The notes below the pieces were generated by a model. It worked only from the letters and a program-made list of their open reading frames with translations. It was not told where the DNA came from and made no database searches. Shown piece after piece: positions 26,086-33,899 of a stretch of 64,000 nt of DNA. The position numbers were made by a program, and so were the translations under genes. The DNA lies in the NCBI GenBank assembly GCA_048882325.1, contig JBHLRS010000012.1, positions 1 to 64,000 of the forward strand. Direction: 5' to 3'. Source of the DNA: Candidatus Thorarchaeota archaeon. Its GTDB lineage: Archaea; Asgardarchaeota; Thorarchaeia; Thorarchaeales; Thorarchaeaceae. Numbering within the stretch: position 1 is the first letter of the stretch; every line of letters begins with the position of its first letter.

Positions 26086-27084
26086 GTGGGAAAGGCTGAC
26101 ATTAGAGAAACCTATCGGGAGATTGACATCATAGACCTCAAAGTAGCATTTGGAAACTTCTATGCATTGAAGGGGGCATCCTTCTTTGCCAACAAGAAGG
26201 AGTTCCTTGGTATCATTGGCGCCTCTGGAGCAGGGAAGACCACAGTTCTTAGGGTCCTTACTGGACAGATTGGTCCAACTGATGGACAGGCCTTTGTTGG
26301 AGGATATGATGTCACAAAGAAGGCAAAGTTGATCAGTCTGCTTGTTGGCTATGTTCCTCAGCTTGAGCACCTTAGTCTGTACTACGACTTCAACGCCCTG
26401 CAAAACGCGCAGTTCTTTGGAAAGATGTTTGGTCTCAGACCAAAGGAGATCGAGGAACGTGCAAGGAATGTCCTCACCATTCTTGGGTTTGATGAGGAAC
26501 TCATCACAAAGAGAGTAGACAGACTCTCAGGTGGAGAGAGAAAACGGGTTTCAATATGCCTGGGCATGATACATGACCCCCCAGTGCTACTCCTGGACGA
26601 ACCCACCACTGGTCTTGATGCACATCTGAGACATGAAACCTTGAACTACCTGAAAGAGCTCAATTACGAGCTCGGTACCACCATGGTCATCATCAGCCAT
26701 GATCTGGAGATTGTTGATTATTGTACGCGAGTCTGCCTTCTTGAGGAAGGCAACGTGAGCCAGTTCGGAACGCCTGAAGAACTAATCTCAACACTCCCTG
26801 GAAAAGGAGAGAGCATCCGAGTTGTTCTCCGAGCAATGACTCAGGAGATGATCAAACGTGTTGACTCACTCCCAGGTGTACAATATACTGCACCAGCTGG
26901 CAGGAACGCTATGAAGTTGTTCATAGACAATCCCAGTGACCAGATCCTGCCAATCATAACGAAACTAAACGAAATGAAAGTACCATTCGAAGAGGTCAGT
27001 CTTGTTGAGGCAGACTTCTTCGACTATTTCCAGGTGAAACCCTGGAAGCAAAATCCTATAGATATAGGAGGAACCGCACCATGA
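26086..27084 (+). CDS. ABC ATP-binding protein
   Basis: GASGAGKTT, LSGGE, LLDEPTTGLD, ISH; probable GTG start at 26086 (ORF opens at 26077). Confidence 0.92.
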   Translation: MGKADIRETYREIDIIDLKVAFGNFYALKGASFFANKKEFLGIIGASGAGKTTVLRVLTGQIGPTDGQAFVGGYDVTKKAKLISLLVGYVPQLEHLSLYYDFNALQNAQFFGKMFGLRPKEIEERARNVLTILGFDEELITKRVDRLSGGERKRVSICLGMIHDPPVLLLDEPTTGLDAHLRHETLNYLKELNYELGTTMVIISHDLEIVDYCTRVCLLEEGNVSQFGTPEELISTLPGKGESIRVVLRAMTQEMIKRVDSLPGVQYTAPAGRNAMKLFIDNPSDQILPIITKLNEMKVPFEEVSLVEADFFDYFQVKPWKQNPIDIGGTAP

Positions 27085-33000: not shown

Positions 33001-33899
33001 TGACTGACTATGAAGAAGTAACCGTCTATGAAACGAATCCAAATGAGGTTGACACCGACTCTGATCAAATCAGTGATTACGATGAGGTCTTTGGCAACAA
33101 CCCGCTGAGTGTCCCGACAGACCCACTTGAGGCTGATGGAGACTTTGATGGTTTGGATGACTACGAAGAACTTTTCACTTACGGTTCAAACCCCACTCTT
33201 GTTGACAGCGATCAGGACTCCTTGACCGACTTCATGGAGGTCACTGAATACCACACTTTACCAATGAATAATGACACCGATTCCGATCTCTTATCTGATG
33301 GTGCTGAAGTGAACGTTTATGGAACAGATCCCACAAATCCTGACAGCGACGGAGACTCACTCAGTGACTATAGAGAGGTCGTGGTGCTTGGTACTGACCC
33401 GAACCACAGAGACAGTGACCGAGACGGGATTTTGGATGGCCAGGACCTCCTCCCGAATGTCCACTGGATATTCCCGATATCAGCCATCTTTGCTCTGGCC
33501 TTTGTGTTGGCTGTGGTTGTGAGGCGAGTCAGAGAGAGATATCTTGTGGAGGAGTTCGTCACCAAAGCAGAACCCGCGAGCTTGGGCTTGGAGCCGGGCA
33601 TGGACATCGCTGTGGAGTACAAGATACGGGAAGGTAAGGTCATCTTTGGCGTGGTGGTGCGGAACGGTGCTGACAACCCGATGCAGAACGTGCAGGTGAT
33701 ACTGGGAGTGCCAGACCTGACTGACGCCATCAAGACAGAGAACCTCGGTACAGTGGAACCAGACACGGTTTCAGTGGCGGAAATCGAGTTCGAGCTGCAG
33801 CCTGGTGCTGAAGGCGAGCTGGTCGGCATGATTGAGTACGACAGTGTCGACGGTGAGCACAAGGTCGTGAACCTGAAGCCAGTCAAGATTGTAGCATGA
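27081..33899 (+). CDS. Giant surface protein: FG-GAP/VCBS beta-propeller, TSP3-like Ca-binding repeats, TM, cytoplasmic Ig-like domain
   Basis: Signal peptide; seven blades of the type xGDxDxDxxxExxxG; about 1700 aa of D[ST]DxDxLxDxxE...TDP repeats; TM WIFPISAIFALAFVLAVVV then RRVRER; ATGA overlap with the upstream ATPase stop. Confidence 0.9.
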   Translation: MKTHHVIIALLAVCILAGLQLQTSDTGIQPVAITSPMVQQNPHTVAEIAPFDTAIVWSTTTGNQIIDVVVDNFDADARDEVAVITQNGTLFMFDDNSSLLWKLDLGSTPHALTSFDGTAATGQEMLIGTDYGVLVIGANKAVQMNMSLPEPVYAVAGGNFDADGLEEIAVGCDDFYVYAFEINTTQLWSYLSNGKVRLIAGADIDSDARTEIAVASEGRRFTLLQDTGTMVFEKTSATAIRVVAMGDITAAANWEVLYGNTNGTLRVWYDTGTLVYNIQLRDSITALAVGDLVTGGRQEFAVGTAGNQLRIYDSSGILSWNKTLTGQPNSIQFSNIGATTNSQVLVGIPNTLRLYNSTGWLTSSVDAAGFTGALSYGDLDSFGGEEYVFGTNGGLVSAYGRDFDGEGLADAREILMENTLYDNPDTDADNLNDAEEVLDYGTNPLEPDSDFDKLSDFAEVRTYGTDPNEPDSDSDKLTDWQEIYLGTDPNARDSDSDQLTDYEENNVTLTDPLDEDTNNNGINDAQDDNDGDLLTNLQEVRITLTDPNDVDSDNDSISDYYDDQDSDNLANWKEIQVGSDVWDPDTDSDLLLDGEEVKIYKTSPLNEDTDSDQLTDYEEVMIVGSDPLSEDGDNDGLSDYDEYVVYGTDVMNPDTDSDTLKDGREVNVWFTDPLNNDTDSDLISDGLEVKVWGSDPNSADTDLDLLNDYLECYVWHTNVTNADTDSDSLGDGLEVLTYGTNATLVDSDFDTIRDPDEVKYLSSGWDPTNAHTFDAVLNDGEWDWDGDSLTNYDEIYLTRTSPILTDTDGDLITDDLEDSDLDGLTNYDELYVTFSLPRNPDSDDDKVKDGDEWYLLGTDVNDEDSDDNGISDYDEDFDGDNLSNGVELYITFTLHDDSDSDNDFISDYYDDEDADLLPNWFEVEMTGTDPVYNDTNDNGVFDWEEDPDGDELNNLAELNNNCDPLVADTDQDLLTDGEEVLHTHTDPTDSDDDDDGILDGNDDQDNDGLTNLEELRTYGTNVTLWDTDSDMIRDGLEIDVGLNATNPDSDSDSIYDGWNDIIPNGIYEPQFGERGEDVNANGVVNVGETSPFEADSDFDGLDDAEEYLYGTNPLDDDSDDDLLLDGEEINEYGTDPLNDDSDSDLLSDYIEVELTLTDPNNMWFNGTHTDYMIDSDGDLLTNGDEIDIYDTNPGDFDSDNDNIGDGMEVLVYFSDPNSNDTDGDRLLDNEELFYGTGINTQDTDGDQLDDYVEIEYLGTDPLLPSTYMNGTLDGDLDHDGDGLSDAVEIYGYHSNATLADTDQDMLEDGFEVFVSGTSPTDQDTDDDQLSDYDEWMIYHTDPTGSDSDSDQLDDYFEVYVSLTSPTLWDSDGDTLADGFEWNNGTNPNSVDSDNDLLNDNIELDIGTDPNLNDTDSDSLSDWEEWVLYGTDPLEADVDQDGLNDSEELENGTDWENWDSDFDTISDGDEVNIYGTSPINDDTDSDNLADADELFNSHTDPLLVDTDGDTIPDDLDDQDADGLTNADEIYLYETNCTSIDTDSDFISDFDEIFVWDTSPKLFDSDEDGLGDWDELFYWFSDPNLRDTDGDLLEDAEEALTWHTWLNSTDTDMDNVSDYDEIKVFETDALHWDTDSDSVSDGDELYVYNTSPLREDTDSDLLLDGQEINGFFMTFNISGVVESRWVYTNPRAKDTDQDTLSDFEEVNMTGTDPTLFSTQGTTISDADWDIDNDMLTNAQEIRLTRTDPRVFDSDSDGKSDGADDEDRDLLTNYWECVLTETDPRDPDSNDNGVSDYNDDEDGDTLTNGEECAIYGTDPRDRDTDQDQLDDNEEIDDWGTDPLNKDSDFDGLEDGPEVHEWGTMPDSNDTDLDWLTDYEEVVLTGTDPTKPITYGTTYDRWYDSDDDGISNWEELRVYFTLPNDPDFDNDDLLDGLEITLGTDINGTDTDFDLLTDGQEYLLYGTNPLEPDSDFDQLTDYEEVTVYETNPNEVDTDSDQISDYDEVFGNNPLSVPTDPLEADGDFDGLDDYEELFTYGSNPTLVDSDQDSLTDFMEVTEYHTLPMNNDTDSDLLSDGAEVNVYGTDPTNPDSDGDSLSDYREVVVLGTDPNHRDSDRDGILDGQDLLPNVHWIFPISAIFALAFVLAVVVRRVRERYLVEEFVTKAEPASLGLEPGMDIAVEYKIREGKVIFGVVVRNGADNPMQNVQVILGVPDLTDAIKTENLGTVEPDTVSVAEIEFELQPGAEGELVGMIEYDSVDGEHKVVNLKPVKIVA
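28285..33450 (+). repeat. Intragenic tandem TSP3-like Asp-rich repeats (about 23 aa, roughly 70 copies)
   Basis: Recurrent DTDSDxLSDxEEV..YGTDP units, diverged at DNA level; copy number is an estimate. Confidence 0.85.

Follow-up and report, generated by a model that had tools for sequence, protein, structure and literature searches.

A giant Thorarchaeota membrane protein carries a TSP3-type repeat stalk of near-constant length and a predicted cytoplasmic ear-like tail

The window analysed here, a stretch of 64,000 nucleotides of Thorarchaeota DNA, encodes a giant protein that is read as a Thorarchaeota-specific, fixed-length surface spike whose internal ear-like tail most likely docks a cytosolic partner. 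This reading, in which we place somewhat more confidence than doubt, takes its last step from analogy with eukaryotic appendage domains. Outside the cell, about 71 EF-hand-like TSP3 repeats would form a rod tipped by an eight-bladed propeller, a single helix would anchor the rod in the membrane, and the chain would end in a stand-alone cytoplasmic Ig sandwich of the family of Asgard ear (appendage-like) modules.

Architecture and topology

The open reading frame is intact (2272 amino acids plus the stop codon), and its product aligns collinearly with 21 full-length orthologues. The domain order is signal peptide, propeller head, about 71 TSP3-type repeats, transmembrane helix, the basic motif RRVRER and a tail of 119 residues (Table 1). 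A hydropathy scan detected only the N-terminal 25 residues and the segment at aa 2127-2148 as hydrophobic, in agreement with the giant type I protein with one TM helix proposed in the initial annotation. Aspartate makes up 18.9% of the residues, there are 7 cysteines in total, and none of the 33 N-x-S/T sequons lies in the tail. The sequons at residues 506 and 1534 are kept in 21/21 orthologues, and many others are also conserved.

The position of the TM helix is conserved while its sequence is variable (46% identity). RRVRER follows the helix directly, and a basic cluster is found here in every orthologue. Together with the single TM helix, this positive-inside signal supports a location of the C-terminal domain inside the cell, as had been proposed. 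The same is suggested by the company kept by the relatives of this domain, which occur with zinc ribbons, winged helices and Vps28 C-terminal domains, and without a signal peptide.

Table 1. Features of the giant gene, its product and the preceding genes of the operon (positions in the window)
Feature	Position	Strand	Evidence
Giant type I membrane protein gene	27081..33899	+	ORF list, translation, 21-orthologue alignment
Signal peptide or signal anchor, aa 1-25	27081..27155	+	Hydropathy scan; basic-then-hydrophobic start in 21/21 orthologues
Eight-bladed beta-propeller head, aa 52-405	27234..28295	+	AlphaFold2, blade register, Pfam, structural matches
TSP3-type calcium-loop repeat stalk, ~71 units, aa ~406-2122	28296..33446	+	Repeat parsing, shuffles, Pfam TSP3_bac, head-end model
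Single TM helix, aa 2127-2148	33459..33524	+	Hydropathy scan; position conserved
Basic stop-transfer RRVRER, aa 2148-2153	33522..33539	+	Sequence; basic cluster in every orthologue
Juxtamembrane linker, aa 2154-2173	33540..33599	+	Conserved in alignment A2; predicted mostly disordered
GAE/appendage-like Ig beta-sandwich, aa 2174-2272	33600..33896	+	AlphaFold2, Foldseek, VIA-align, ESM Atlas, hhalign
ABC-2 permease, first operon gene	18840..20024	+	Pfam ABC2_membrane_3 E 6e-31; syntenic 9/9
ABC ATPase, N-terminal TrmB-like region	20036..21715	+	Pfam ABC_tran, Regulator_TrmB; syntenic 9/9
1459-aa S8 subtilase-like + GIFT/DUF4350 (GldG-like) membrane protein	21705..26084	+	Pfam, hydropathy; syntenic 9/9
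Second ABC ATPase, stop overlaps giant gene's start	26077..27084	+	Pfam ABC_tran, ORF coordinates; syntenic 9/9

The repeat stalk

Parsing of aa ~448-2122 of the stalk gave 71 DxDxD-type units, most of which are 23 residues long and consist of a loop and a short helix; eight short units measure 12-14 residues. The strict EF-hand-like pattern DxDxDxxxDxxE occurs 50 times in the stalk, where shuffled sequences lead one to expect 0.33, and helices recur at 23-residue spacing in a model of aa 402-450. The Pfam model TSP3_bac scored 48.9 and 47.1 bits on isolated stalk segments (cut-off 25) and only 14 bits on the whole protein, a low value that is probably due to composition correction; an order-level orthologue reached 701 bits with TSP3. 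The roughly 70 Asp-rich, TSP3-like repeats with many sequons that had been noticed at the outset are thus borne out by the unit count, the segment scores and the sequon number. The rod would be expected to bind about one calcium ion per repeat and to carry N-glycans.

Across 22 orthologues that are 45-79% identical, the number of calcium-loop motifs ranges from 72 to 80 (mean 75.8, s.d. 1.6). The sole repeat-sized indel within the family is a 24-residue deletion in one orthologue (L056), which falls at an irregular, non-repeat spot. Judged from these alignments, the repeat number is essentially frozen across the family. The Asp-rich calcium loops resemble those of bacterial TSP3 (PF18884) and of thrombospondin type 3. 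The stalk differs from these proteins in that its ~71 units run uninterrupted and without disulfides, each unit is conserved and their number is fixed across the family. Such a frozen calcium rod is an unusual case of a tandem repeat held at fixed length.

The propeller head

AlphaFold2 modelled aa 52-405 with a pLDDT of 90.1 as 32 strands, which form eight four-stranded blades of ~44 residues each; acidic DxDxD...E loops are conserved in blades 1, 3, 4 and 8. The head had been taken for a seven-bladed FG-GAP propeller of the integrin-alpha family, and this assignment was not supported. Besides the blade number, the FG-GAP models of Pfam stayed below their cut-offs (FG-GAP 13 bits vs 22.1; FG-GAP_3 15.9 vs 26.9), and integrin alpha6 ranked only 46th among the structural matches (Z 22.9). 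The best of these matches are eight-bladed propellers (Z 32-36), and BBS2 has a Z of 26.2; in Foldseek, BBS2, BBS9 and BamB rank high. Four Pfam models scored above cut-off: BBS2_Mid (40.4/27 bits), PHTB1_N (38.1/28.6) and Beta-prop_BBS7 (36.3/27), each of which matches only part of the head, and Beta-prop_CGLA. By these cut-offs the head would group with the BBS2/7/9-type propellers and not with FG-GAP proper.

A clan-level blade motif is common to the head and to the FG-GAP/integrin-alpha, BBS2/7/9 and BamB/PQQ-type propellers. However, integrin alpha and the BBS proteins have seven blades rather than eight, and the BBS proteins are cytosolic whereas this head is predicted to be extracellular. 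No integrin-beta-like partner is encoded in the operon of the giant. In BBS2/7/9, a coiled coil and GAE, platform and helical domains come after the propeller; here, the GAE-like domain lies across the membrane from the head. As a side observation, the giant unites a BBS-type propeller with a GAE-type sandwich in a single chain, two folds that are also combined in BBS2/7/9. A search among long proteins for a shared head returned only four weak STAND-ATPase-propeller proteins, which suggests that, within this length class, the head is without close relatives outside Thorarchaeota.

The cytoplasmic tail

The tail (aa 2154-2272) was modelled by AlphaFold2 as a beta-sandwich of 7-8 strands with a mean pLDDT of 83.5, from a shallow alignment of 22 sequences (Neff ~2.2). 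The chain ends one residue past the last strand, and there is no platform subdomain. With 78.5% identity among orthologues, the tail surpasses all other parts of the protein in conservation, including the stalk (66%) and the head (54%). It begins with a linker of consensus V-T-x-A-E-P-A-S-x-G-L-E-P-G-M, in which E5, T8, E11, P12, S14, G16, L17, E18, G20 and M21 of the tail alignment (A2) are nearly invariant; pLDDT is below 50 at model residues 1-13.

In all-against-all comparison with VIA-align, the top structural match of the tail is the gamma-COP appendage 1R4X (Z 11.9, 113 residues aligned, rmsd 3.0), followed by the COPI beta/gamma appendage (Z 11.2) and the gamma2-adaptin ear 2YMT (Z 11.1, 112 of 122 residues). 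The GAE domain of GGA (3MNM, Z 10.2) and those of beta2-adaptin, alpha-adaptin and BBS9 follow at Z ~9-10. Foldseek, which had been proposed as a check, returned COPI appendages at TM 0.65-0.70, and the ten nearest named clusters of the ESM Atlas are all adaptin or coatomer appendage families. The resemblance to appendage Ig folds that was initially perceived is supported at the level of predicted structure. Nevertheless, transglutaminase C-terminal barrels, ApaG/PDIP38 and GH2 domains are only ~1-2 Z lower, so the fold alone is no proof of ear function.

Pfam assigned no family to the tail of the protein encoded in the window, with no appendage or GAE model significant, and found nothing significant in the 22 orthologous tails, where Alpha_adaptinC2 was touched in 2/22 (E 0.07). 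HMMER searches of all PDB sequences, one with the profile of the tail (A2) and one with that of a related Asgard domain (A3), found no appendage structure; the only hits were chance matches to GAPDH, arrestin and GH20 (E >0.2). Lacking both a platform and a Pfam match, the tail is best called ear-like and not a proven member of the adaptin family. The main binding site of the alpha- and beta2-adaptin ears lies on the platform subdomain; the gamma-adaptin and GGA ears are, like the tail, stand-alone sandwiches without a platform. Eukaryotic GAE/appendage Ig subdomains cover nearly the whole domain (Z 10.2-11.9) and are cytosolic, as the tail is predicted to be. The two differ in that eukaryotic ears are joined by a hinge to a soluble HEAT-repeat trunk, whereas a TM helix and a 20-residue linker connect the tail to its giant ectodomain, and they share no significant sequence match.

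Relatives in other Asgard proteins

A search for the same domain in other Asgard proteins had also been proposed at the outset. Using hhalign, alignment A2 matched the sandwich (A3) of an Asgard family of ~800 residues over 95 columns (97.6% probability, E 3.1e-12). Members of this family carry zinc ribbons, PCI/UFL1-like winged helices and a Vps28 C-terminal domain, and match the reported fusions of UFL1-like, adaptin/COPI C-terminal and Vps28 domains (Liu et al., bioRxiv 10.1101/2020.10.19.343400; Makarova et al. 2024, PMC10936438). The A3 profile, run against all six frames of the genome from which the window derives, recovered the tail at E 3.3e-8, along with four other proteins in which the sandwich is combined with a platform-like region and zinc ribbons. 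The A2 profile found no paralogue in this genome; only the broader A3 profile finds any. In some relatives, the sandwich follows an N-terminal TM helix and a basic linker. This profile evidence makes the tail a homologue of the Ig subdomain in the Asgard proteins with an 'adaptin/COPI C-terminal domain'.

Both domains are cytosolic, the tail by prediction. The Asgard proteins are soluble or N-terminally anchored and have a platform-like region after the sandwich as well as zinc ribbons, winged helices or Vps28-C, whereas the tail is a sandwich alone at the C-terminus of an extracellular protein of 2150 residues; Pfam found no zinc ribbon, winged helix or Vps28-C in the giant. An exhaustive phmmer search with the tail as query, covering 1.84 billion representative proteins, gave fragments of orthologues only, besides P0011 and P0012, which were judged spurious as multi-stretch matches to unrelated low-complexity repeat proteins. 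Separately, a TM-plus-sandwich protein of 251 residues on contig 16 was noted as no more than a possible relative (hhalign 71%, E 4e-5).

Distribution and operon

The giant gene is single-copy and present in 65/85 genomes of its family. All 55 public loci with the gene are labelled Thorarchaeota or close kin, and by this measure the protein is Thorarchaeota-specific. The order of five genes, with the giant last, is conserved in 9/9 loci examined, sister family included. The four preceding products comprise an ABC-2 permease, an ATPase and a GldG-like auxiliary protein, the components of a GldAFG-type system, plus a further ATPase. The auxiliary has one TM helix at its N-terminus and another at aa 1355-1373, and its cytoplasmic tail of ~80 residues is helical; the protein scored just above cut-off for DUF4350 (30.7/30.4 bits) and IFT52_GIFT (28.5/27.2), and ABC_transp_aux remained below (20.6 vs 34.7 bits). 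As in GldA/GldF/GldG of Bacteroidota gliding motility, permease, ATPase(s) and a two-TM GIFT/DUF4350 auxiliary are encoded together; the second ATPase, the TrmB-like N-terminus, the S8-like domain on the auxiliary and the giant as fifth gene are particular to this operon. The giant gene would be co-transcribed with this GldAFG-like ABC system, and its product presumably assembled or operated by it, including the S8-GIFT protein. A functional link to the longin and Rab-like genes of the window was rejected: the longin gene lies upstream in only 4/8 loci, which is ordinary synteny decay.

Possible functions of the tail

By analogy with GAE/appendage ears, the tail, perhaps with the help of the conserved juxtamembrane linker, would dock a cytosolic partner at the membrane and thereby connect the surface structure with a component inside the cell. 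The initial annotation went further and suggested transmembrane coupling. This is plausible from the strong conservation of the tail and its location, but no partner, bound motif, binding groove or signal was identified for it. An unlikely, though by no means negligible, alternative is that the tail docks the operon's own cytosolic ABC ATPases or the helical tail of the S8-GIFT protein, with no ESCRT-like or trafficking link; such a device would couple ATP hydrolysis mechanically to the giant ectodomain, for mechanotransmission in the style of MacB/FtsEX or for assembly. The start codon (ATG) of the giant gene and the stop codon of the second ATPase gene overlap, a sign that the two are translationally coupled, and the gene order is unbroken even in the sister family. 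Two different ATPases serve one permease, and the S8-GIFT protein likewise has a TM helix followed by a cytoplasmic tail. However, the only detectable relatives of the tail lie in proteins unrelated to ABC systems and, to our knowledge, GldAFG-type systems elsewhere work without a giant protein of this sort.

Less probable still is an envelope spacer, in which the giant forms an S-layer-like canopy and the tail is merely a membrane-proximal anchor or a lateral oligomerisation domain. The model here is tetrabrachion of Staphylothermus marinus, a long stalk that is anchored in the membrane and has a subtilisin-like protease bound to it, and the operon does encode an S8-like protein. The near-frozen repeat number fits length-setting better than an adhesin under diversifying selection, and a single-copy gene that is near-universal in its family, with conserved sequons, would also suit a spacer. 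Yet a pure anchor would have no need of a domain conserved beyond the rest of the protein, or of a disordered linker that is conserved as well. A more ambitious proposal, and an improbable one, is a receptor with a built-in adaptor ear: propeller engagement or clustering would be relayed via the helix, and the ear would recruit Asgard ESCRT-linked, ear-module or small-GTPase machinery to that site on the membrane. If true, the protein would represent an archaeal precursor of the way receptors and adaptors are coupled in eukaryotic membrane trafficking. Hardly any credence is given to the C-terminal domain being a generic extracellular Ig domain of the CARDB/DUF11 type, or to a reversed topology. 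The pattern V-x-V-x-N ... G-x-x-x-Y is common to the tail and CARDB-like sandwiches, DUF11 matched in 2/22 orthologues (E ~0.02), and NPCBM_assoc appeared weakly in some members of the ~800-residue family. Against this, a single TM helix followed by four Arg separates the tail from a sequon-rich, calcium-repeat ectodomain that starts with a signal peptide, and all relatives of the tail occur with zinc ribbons and winged helices or behind an N-terminal TM helix and basic linker. CARDB structures are absent from the top 50 structural matches. A CARDB/DUF11 identity was rejected on topology, relatives and structural ranking, and the docking of a cytosolic partner is the reading we prefer.

Significance

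The eukaryotic signature proteins recognised in Asgard archaea include adaptin-ear-like domains. We know of no instance in which the cell surface of Thorarchaeota has been seen. Here, a conserved surface giant encoded by a single-copy gene is predicted to fix one ear-like domain to the cytoplasmic face of the membrane, which gives that domain a defined location. With its 119 residues, the tail can also be expressed by itself as a defined bait, and the list of candidate partners is short: the four other products of the operon and a handful of paralogous proteins with ear domains. Should none of these bind, the giant would still be a useful marker and likely a major component of the Thorarchaeota envelope. 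Any partner that is found would, for the first time, link the Asgard cell surface physically with eukaryote-like intracellular machinery.

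Genomic Context

The giant gene is the fifth and last of five tightly packed genes (Table), whose order is kept in nine of nine orthologous loci examined, that of the sister family included. Its frame runs through 2272 codons uninterrupted, as read from the translation of the window, and its start codon (ATG) falls within the stop codon of the ABC ATPase gene upstream. The product of the third gene, the S8-GIFT protein, is laid out like the giant protein: an N-terminal hydrophobic segment, a large ectodomain and a transmembrane segment (residues 1355–1373), beyond which a basic cluster (NRRRMRKRLR) leads into a cytoplasmic tail, helical and about 80 residues long. 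Two separate cytoplasmic tails are thus found beside two ABC ATPases in the operon.

The divergent gene on the other side of the operon encodes a protein for which no Pfam match and no clear transmembrane segment were found. Since it is in place in eight of eight family loci (31–53% identity), it may be part of the system. The linkage of a longin gene farther upstream was inconsistent (4/8 loci). Downstream of the giant gene lies a convergent gene whose product has four transmembrane segments, is rich in N-x-S/T sequons and is without a Pfam match; this gene adjoins the giant gene in only four of the 29 loci checked, several of which end soon after the giant gene.

Table. Locations of the operon, its neighbours and related proteins of the same genome
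Feature	Location	Strand	Description
Operon gene 1			ABC-2 permease
Operon gene 2			ABC ATPase, TrmB-like N-terminus
Operon gene 3 (S8-GIFT protein)	window 21705–26084	+	1459-aa membrane protein; S8 subtilase-like and GIFT/DUF4350 (GldG-like) domains
Operon gene 4			second ABC ATPase
Operon gene 5	window 27081–33899	+	giant protein
Stalk repeats	window 28422–33446	+	part of gene 5
Divergent gene	window 16300–18609	-	769 aa
Convergent gene	window 33942–35030	-	362 aa
L092, ear-like protein	contig 8, 4884–7160	-	758 aa
L091, three clustered ear-like paralogues	contig 2 (18000–36000): 7096–8583, 10474–11601, 11623–12711	+	495, 375, 362 aa
L002, sandwich protein	contig 16, 1423–2178	-	251 aa
L150, propeller protein	contig 4, 1183–2628	+	481 aa

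Topology and Stalk

The initial annotation of the giant protein was borne out by its open frame, hydropathy, sequons and repeats. A hydropathy scan revealed two hydrophobic segments: residues 1–25, basic and then hydrophobic as in a signal peptide or anchor, and the transmembrane segment at residues 2127–2148, with RRVRER immediately C-terminal to it. Aspartate accounts for 18.9% of all residues. All 33 N-x-S/T sequons precede the final 119 residues. Orthologues retain many of them, those at positions 506 and 1534 in 21 of 21 cases.

About 70 Asp-rich TSP3-like repeats had been described, and 71 DxDxD-type units were counted in the stalk (residues ~448–2122), the commonest length being 23 residues, with eight short units of 12–14 residues. 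The strict EF-hand-like motif DxDxDxxxDxxE occurs 50 times, whereas 200 shuffled versions of the stalk gave an expectation of 0.33 and at most 3. The Pfam model TSP3_bac gave only 14 bits on the whole giant protein; on stalk segments scanned separately it gave 48.9 and 47.1 bits, above the 25-bit cut-off, and on an order-level orthologue 701 bits. In the structural model of the head, the first two stalk repeats each consist of a loop and an eight-residue helix (residues 410–417 and 433–440), spaced by 23 residues.

The alignment of 21 full-length orthologues with the window protein is almost gapless, and the calcium-loop motif count across all 22 proteins is 72–80 (mean 75.8, s.d. 1.6). Among 20 family orthologues, 50–79% identical, the sole repeat-sized indel is a 24-residue deletion, which occurs in a single orthologue and falls at an irregular site that is not a repeat; the sister-family protein alone lacks two whole stalk units. 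A repeat number frozen in this way is unusual for a tandem array and suggests that the stalk sets a length or adopts a specific higher-order fold, and selection seems to act on one or the other. Identity to the window protein is 54% in the head, 66% in the stalk, 46% in the transmembrane segment, 60% in the juxtamembrane stretch and 78.5% in the tail, the best-conserved part of the protein in this 22-sequence alignment.

Propeller Head

The head was modelled with AlphaFold2 (pLDDT 90.1, pTM 0.84) from an alignment of the first 450 residues of the giant protein, 21 orthologues and three distant matches. The model has 32 strands, which form eight four-stranded blades of about 44 residues each (residues 52–405), and not the seven blades originally proposed. 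The closest structures were eight-bladed propellers with Z scores of 32–36: the pre-60S ribosomal WD40 factor (8fl0), Sqt1, Rsa4, ODA16, YxaL and BamB, and also the designed propellers Ika8 and Cake8. The scores for BBS2, BBS9 and integrin alpha6 were 26, 24 and only 23, respectively. The head passed the Pfam cut-offs of BBS2_Mid, PHTB1_N (BBS9), Beta-prop_BBS7 and the lambda-carrageenase propeller; FG-GAP, FG-GAP_3 and Itfg2 all stayed below threshold in the giant protein. The FG-GAP-type assignment holds at the level of the clan, but the integrin-alpha-like form of it does not. Conserved acidic DxDxD...E loops occur in blades 1, 3, 4 and 8, and the acidic residues D74, D76, E80, E167, D203, D207, E211, D380 and E386 are near-invariant in the head alignment.

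The same genome encodes a cytosolic protein (L150) with a BBS/FG-GAP-like propeller akin to this head (E 4e-7); after the propeller come a zinc ribbon and, by eye, apparent winged-helix regions, and the protein has no signal peptide.

The C-Terminal Tail

Residues 2154–2272 gave no match in Pfam, and the AlphaFold2 model of this tail, based on an alignment of 22 tails, reached a pLDDT of 83.5 and a pTM of 0.76. In addition to seven long strands it has a short bridge at the N-terminus, and residues 1–13 of the model are disordered. The resemblance to adaptin/coatomer appendage Ig folds that had been proposed was recovered when 48,161 chains were searched by all-against-all structural comparison: the top match was the gamma-COP appendage (Z 11.9, 113 residues aligned), followed by a COPI coat appendage (Z 11.2) and the gamma2-adaptin ear (Z 11.1, 112/122 residues). 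GGA2 GAE, beta2-adaptin, alpha-adaptin, GGA1 and BBS9 GAE domains scored 9.1–10.2, and Foldseek returned the same appendage families with TM scores of up to 0.70. The fold alone is not decisive, because transglutaminase C-terminal barrels, ApaG/PDIP38 and GH2 sandwiches lie within 1–2 Z units of the ear matches; the ear matches span more of the domain. An independent hint of ear kinship came from the ESM Atlas, where the ten nearest named clusters were all adaptin or coatomer appendage families, with scores (0.83–0.89) that serve as leads only.

With the tail as query, HMMER was run exhaustively over 1.84 billion representative proteins and returned only orthologue fragments and two repeat proteins, the latter judged spurious. 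When 400 genomes of the phylum were searched in six frames, the tail turned up as a single copy in 65 of the 85 genomes belonging to the window's own family, always at the end of an open frame of 2236–2301 residues. The one genome of the sister family has it at 26% identity in a 2197-residue frame. Weaker matches (25–32% identity) fell in frames of about 790–810 residues in several other Asgard families. The 55 loci returned by a scan of public genome contigs are all labelled as Thorarchaeota or as unnamed or neighbouring Asgard bins.

One of these ~800-residue proteins, P0014, has no transmembrane segments; N-terminal zinc ribbons and several PCI/UFL1/DDRGK-type winged helices precede its sandwich (residues 459–563), downstream of which lie a platform-like stretch of alpha/beta structure and the C-terminal domain of Vps28. 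Pfam GAE_BBS1 was weakly matched by 16 of 20 members of this family (best E 0.005). The architecture is that of the fusions of Vps28/Vps23 to adaptin and COPI C-terminal domains and an E3 UFM1 ligase (Liu et al., bioRxiv 10.1101/2020.10.19.343400) and of the Vps28-C proteins with an adaptin appendage region (Makarova et al., PMC10936438). Aligned profile to profile, the 22 tails matched 23 sandwiches of such proteins with 97.6% probability (E 3.1e-12, 95 columns).

The sandwich profile matched five places in the window's own genome, one being the giant's tail (E 3.3e-8) and the others four separate proteins. In the best match (L092, E 2e-12), zinc-ribbon modules are repeated at least six times ahead of an ear-like sandwich, which is followed by a platform-like region and a last zinc ribbon; the Vps28-C domain is lacking. 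The three clustered paralogues (L091) share one layout: one or more N-terminal transmembrane helices lead through a basic linker, which contains an R-P-I-P-G-V motif, to the ear-like sandwich, and this is followed by a platform-like alpha/beta region and, at the C-terminus, a zinc ribbon. By the profile match and these five places, the tail is at the sequence level one of a family of intracellular ear-like modules of Asgard archaea, in which some members are membrane-anchored.

The L091 paralogues flank an EamA transporter gene, and a gene for a 929-residue ResIII/DEAD helicase comes after them. In a further protein (L002), an Arg-rich linker joins a transmembrane segment to a C-terminal sandwich, possibly distantly related to the tail (hhalign 71%, E 4e-5).

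Proposed Role

The giant protein is a fixed-length extracellular rod with a propeller tip, a one-helix anchor and an ear-family sandwich predicted to lie inside the cell, and it is encoded with a GldAFG-like ABC system. The cytoplasmic side had been proposed for the tail, and it is likewise predicted here from sequence features: the ectodomain starts with a signal peptide and bears conserved sequons and calcium repeats, a single helix with four arginines after it separates ectodomain and tail, and the relatives of the tail all share a protein with zinc ribbons and winged helices, or else follow an N-terminal transmembrane segment and a basic linker. An extracellular CARDB-type domain, which would place the tail outside the cell, is very unlikely given this company, and no CARDB was among the top 50 structural matches.

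Each stalk repeat would bind calcium and so stiffen the rod, and the ectodomain would be N-glycosylated. For the tail, we lean towards docking of a cytosolic partner by the ear, perhaps together with its linker. This linker, V-T-x-A-E-P-A-S-x-G-L-E-P-G-M, which extends from the stop-transfer signal to the sandwich, is near-invariant, yet predicted to be disordered, a pattern typical of a binding motif or docking strand. That partner could come from the operon itself, as the ABC ATPases or the S8-GIFT tail, a rival reading of fairly low probability, or it could belong to the Asgard ear, ESCRT or GTPase world. That the tail only anchors or oligomerises the protein within an S-layer-like canopy would account for the frozen length of the stalk, but fits poorly with the tail as the most conserved part, and is improbable.

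The building blocks are already known, namely TSP3 repeats, clan-level propellers, GldAFG-type ABC systems and Asgard ear-like domains. Compared with eukaryotic appendage domains, the tail has neither sequence-profile membership nor attachment to an adaptor trunk, and compared with Asgard ear modules, it lacks their platform; because of these missing features, it is filed as ear-shaped and ear-related rather than as a member of the adaptin family. In methanogens, an appendage region is joined to a GOLD domain via a transmembrane linker (Makarova et al., PMC10936438). No giant type I surface protein with a stand-alone ear at its cytoplasmic terminus was found in the literature searched; in the Asgard archaea, this architecture is encoded by a single-copy gene and is conserved throughout one class.
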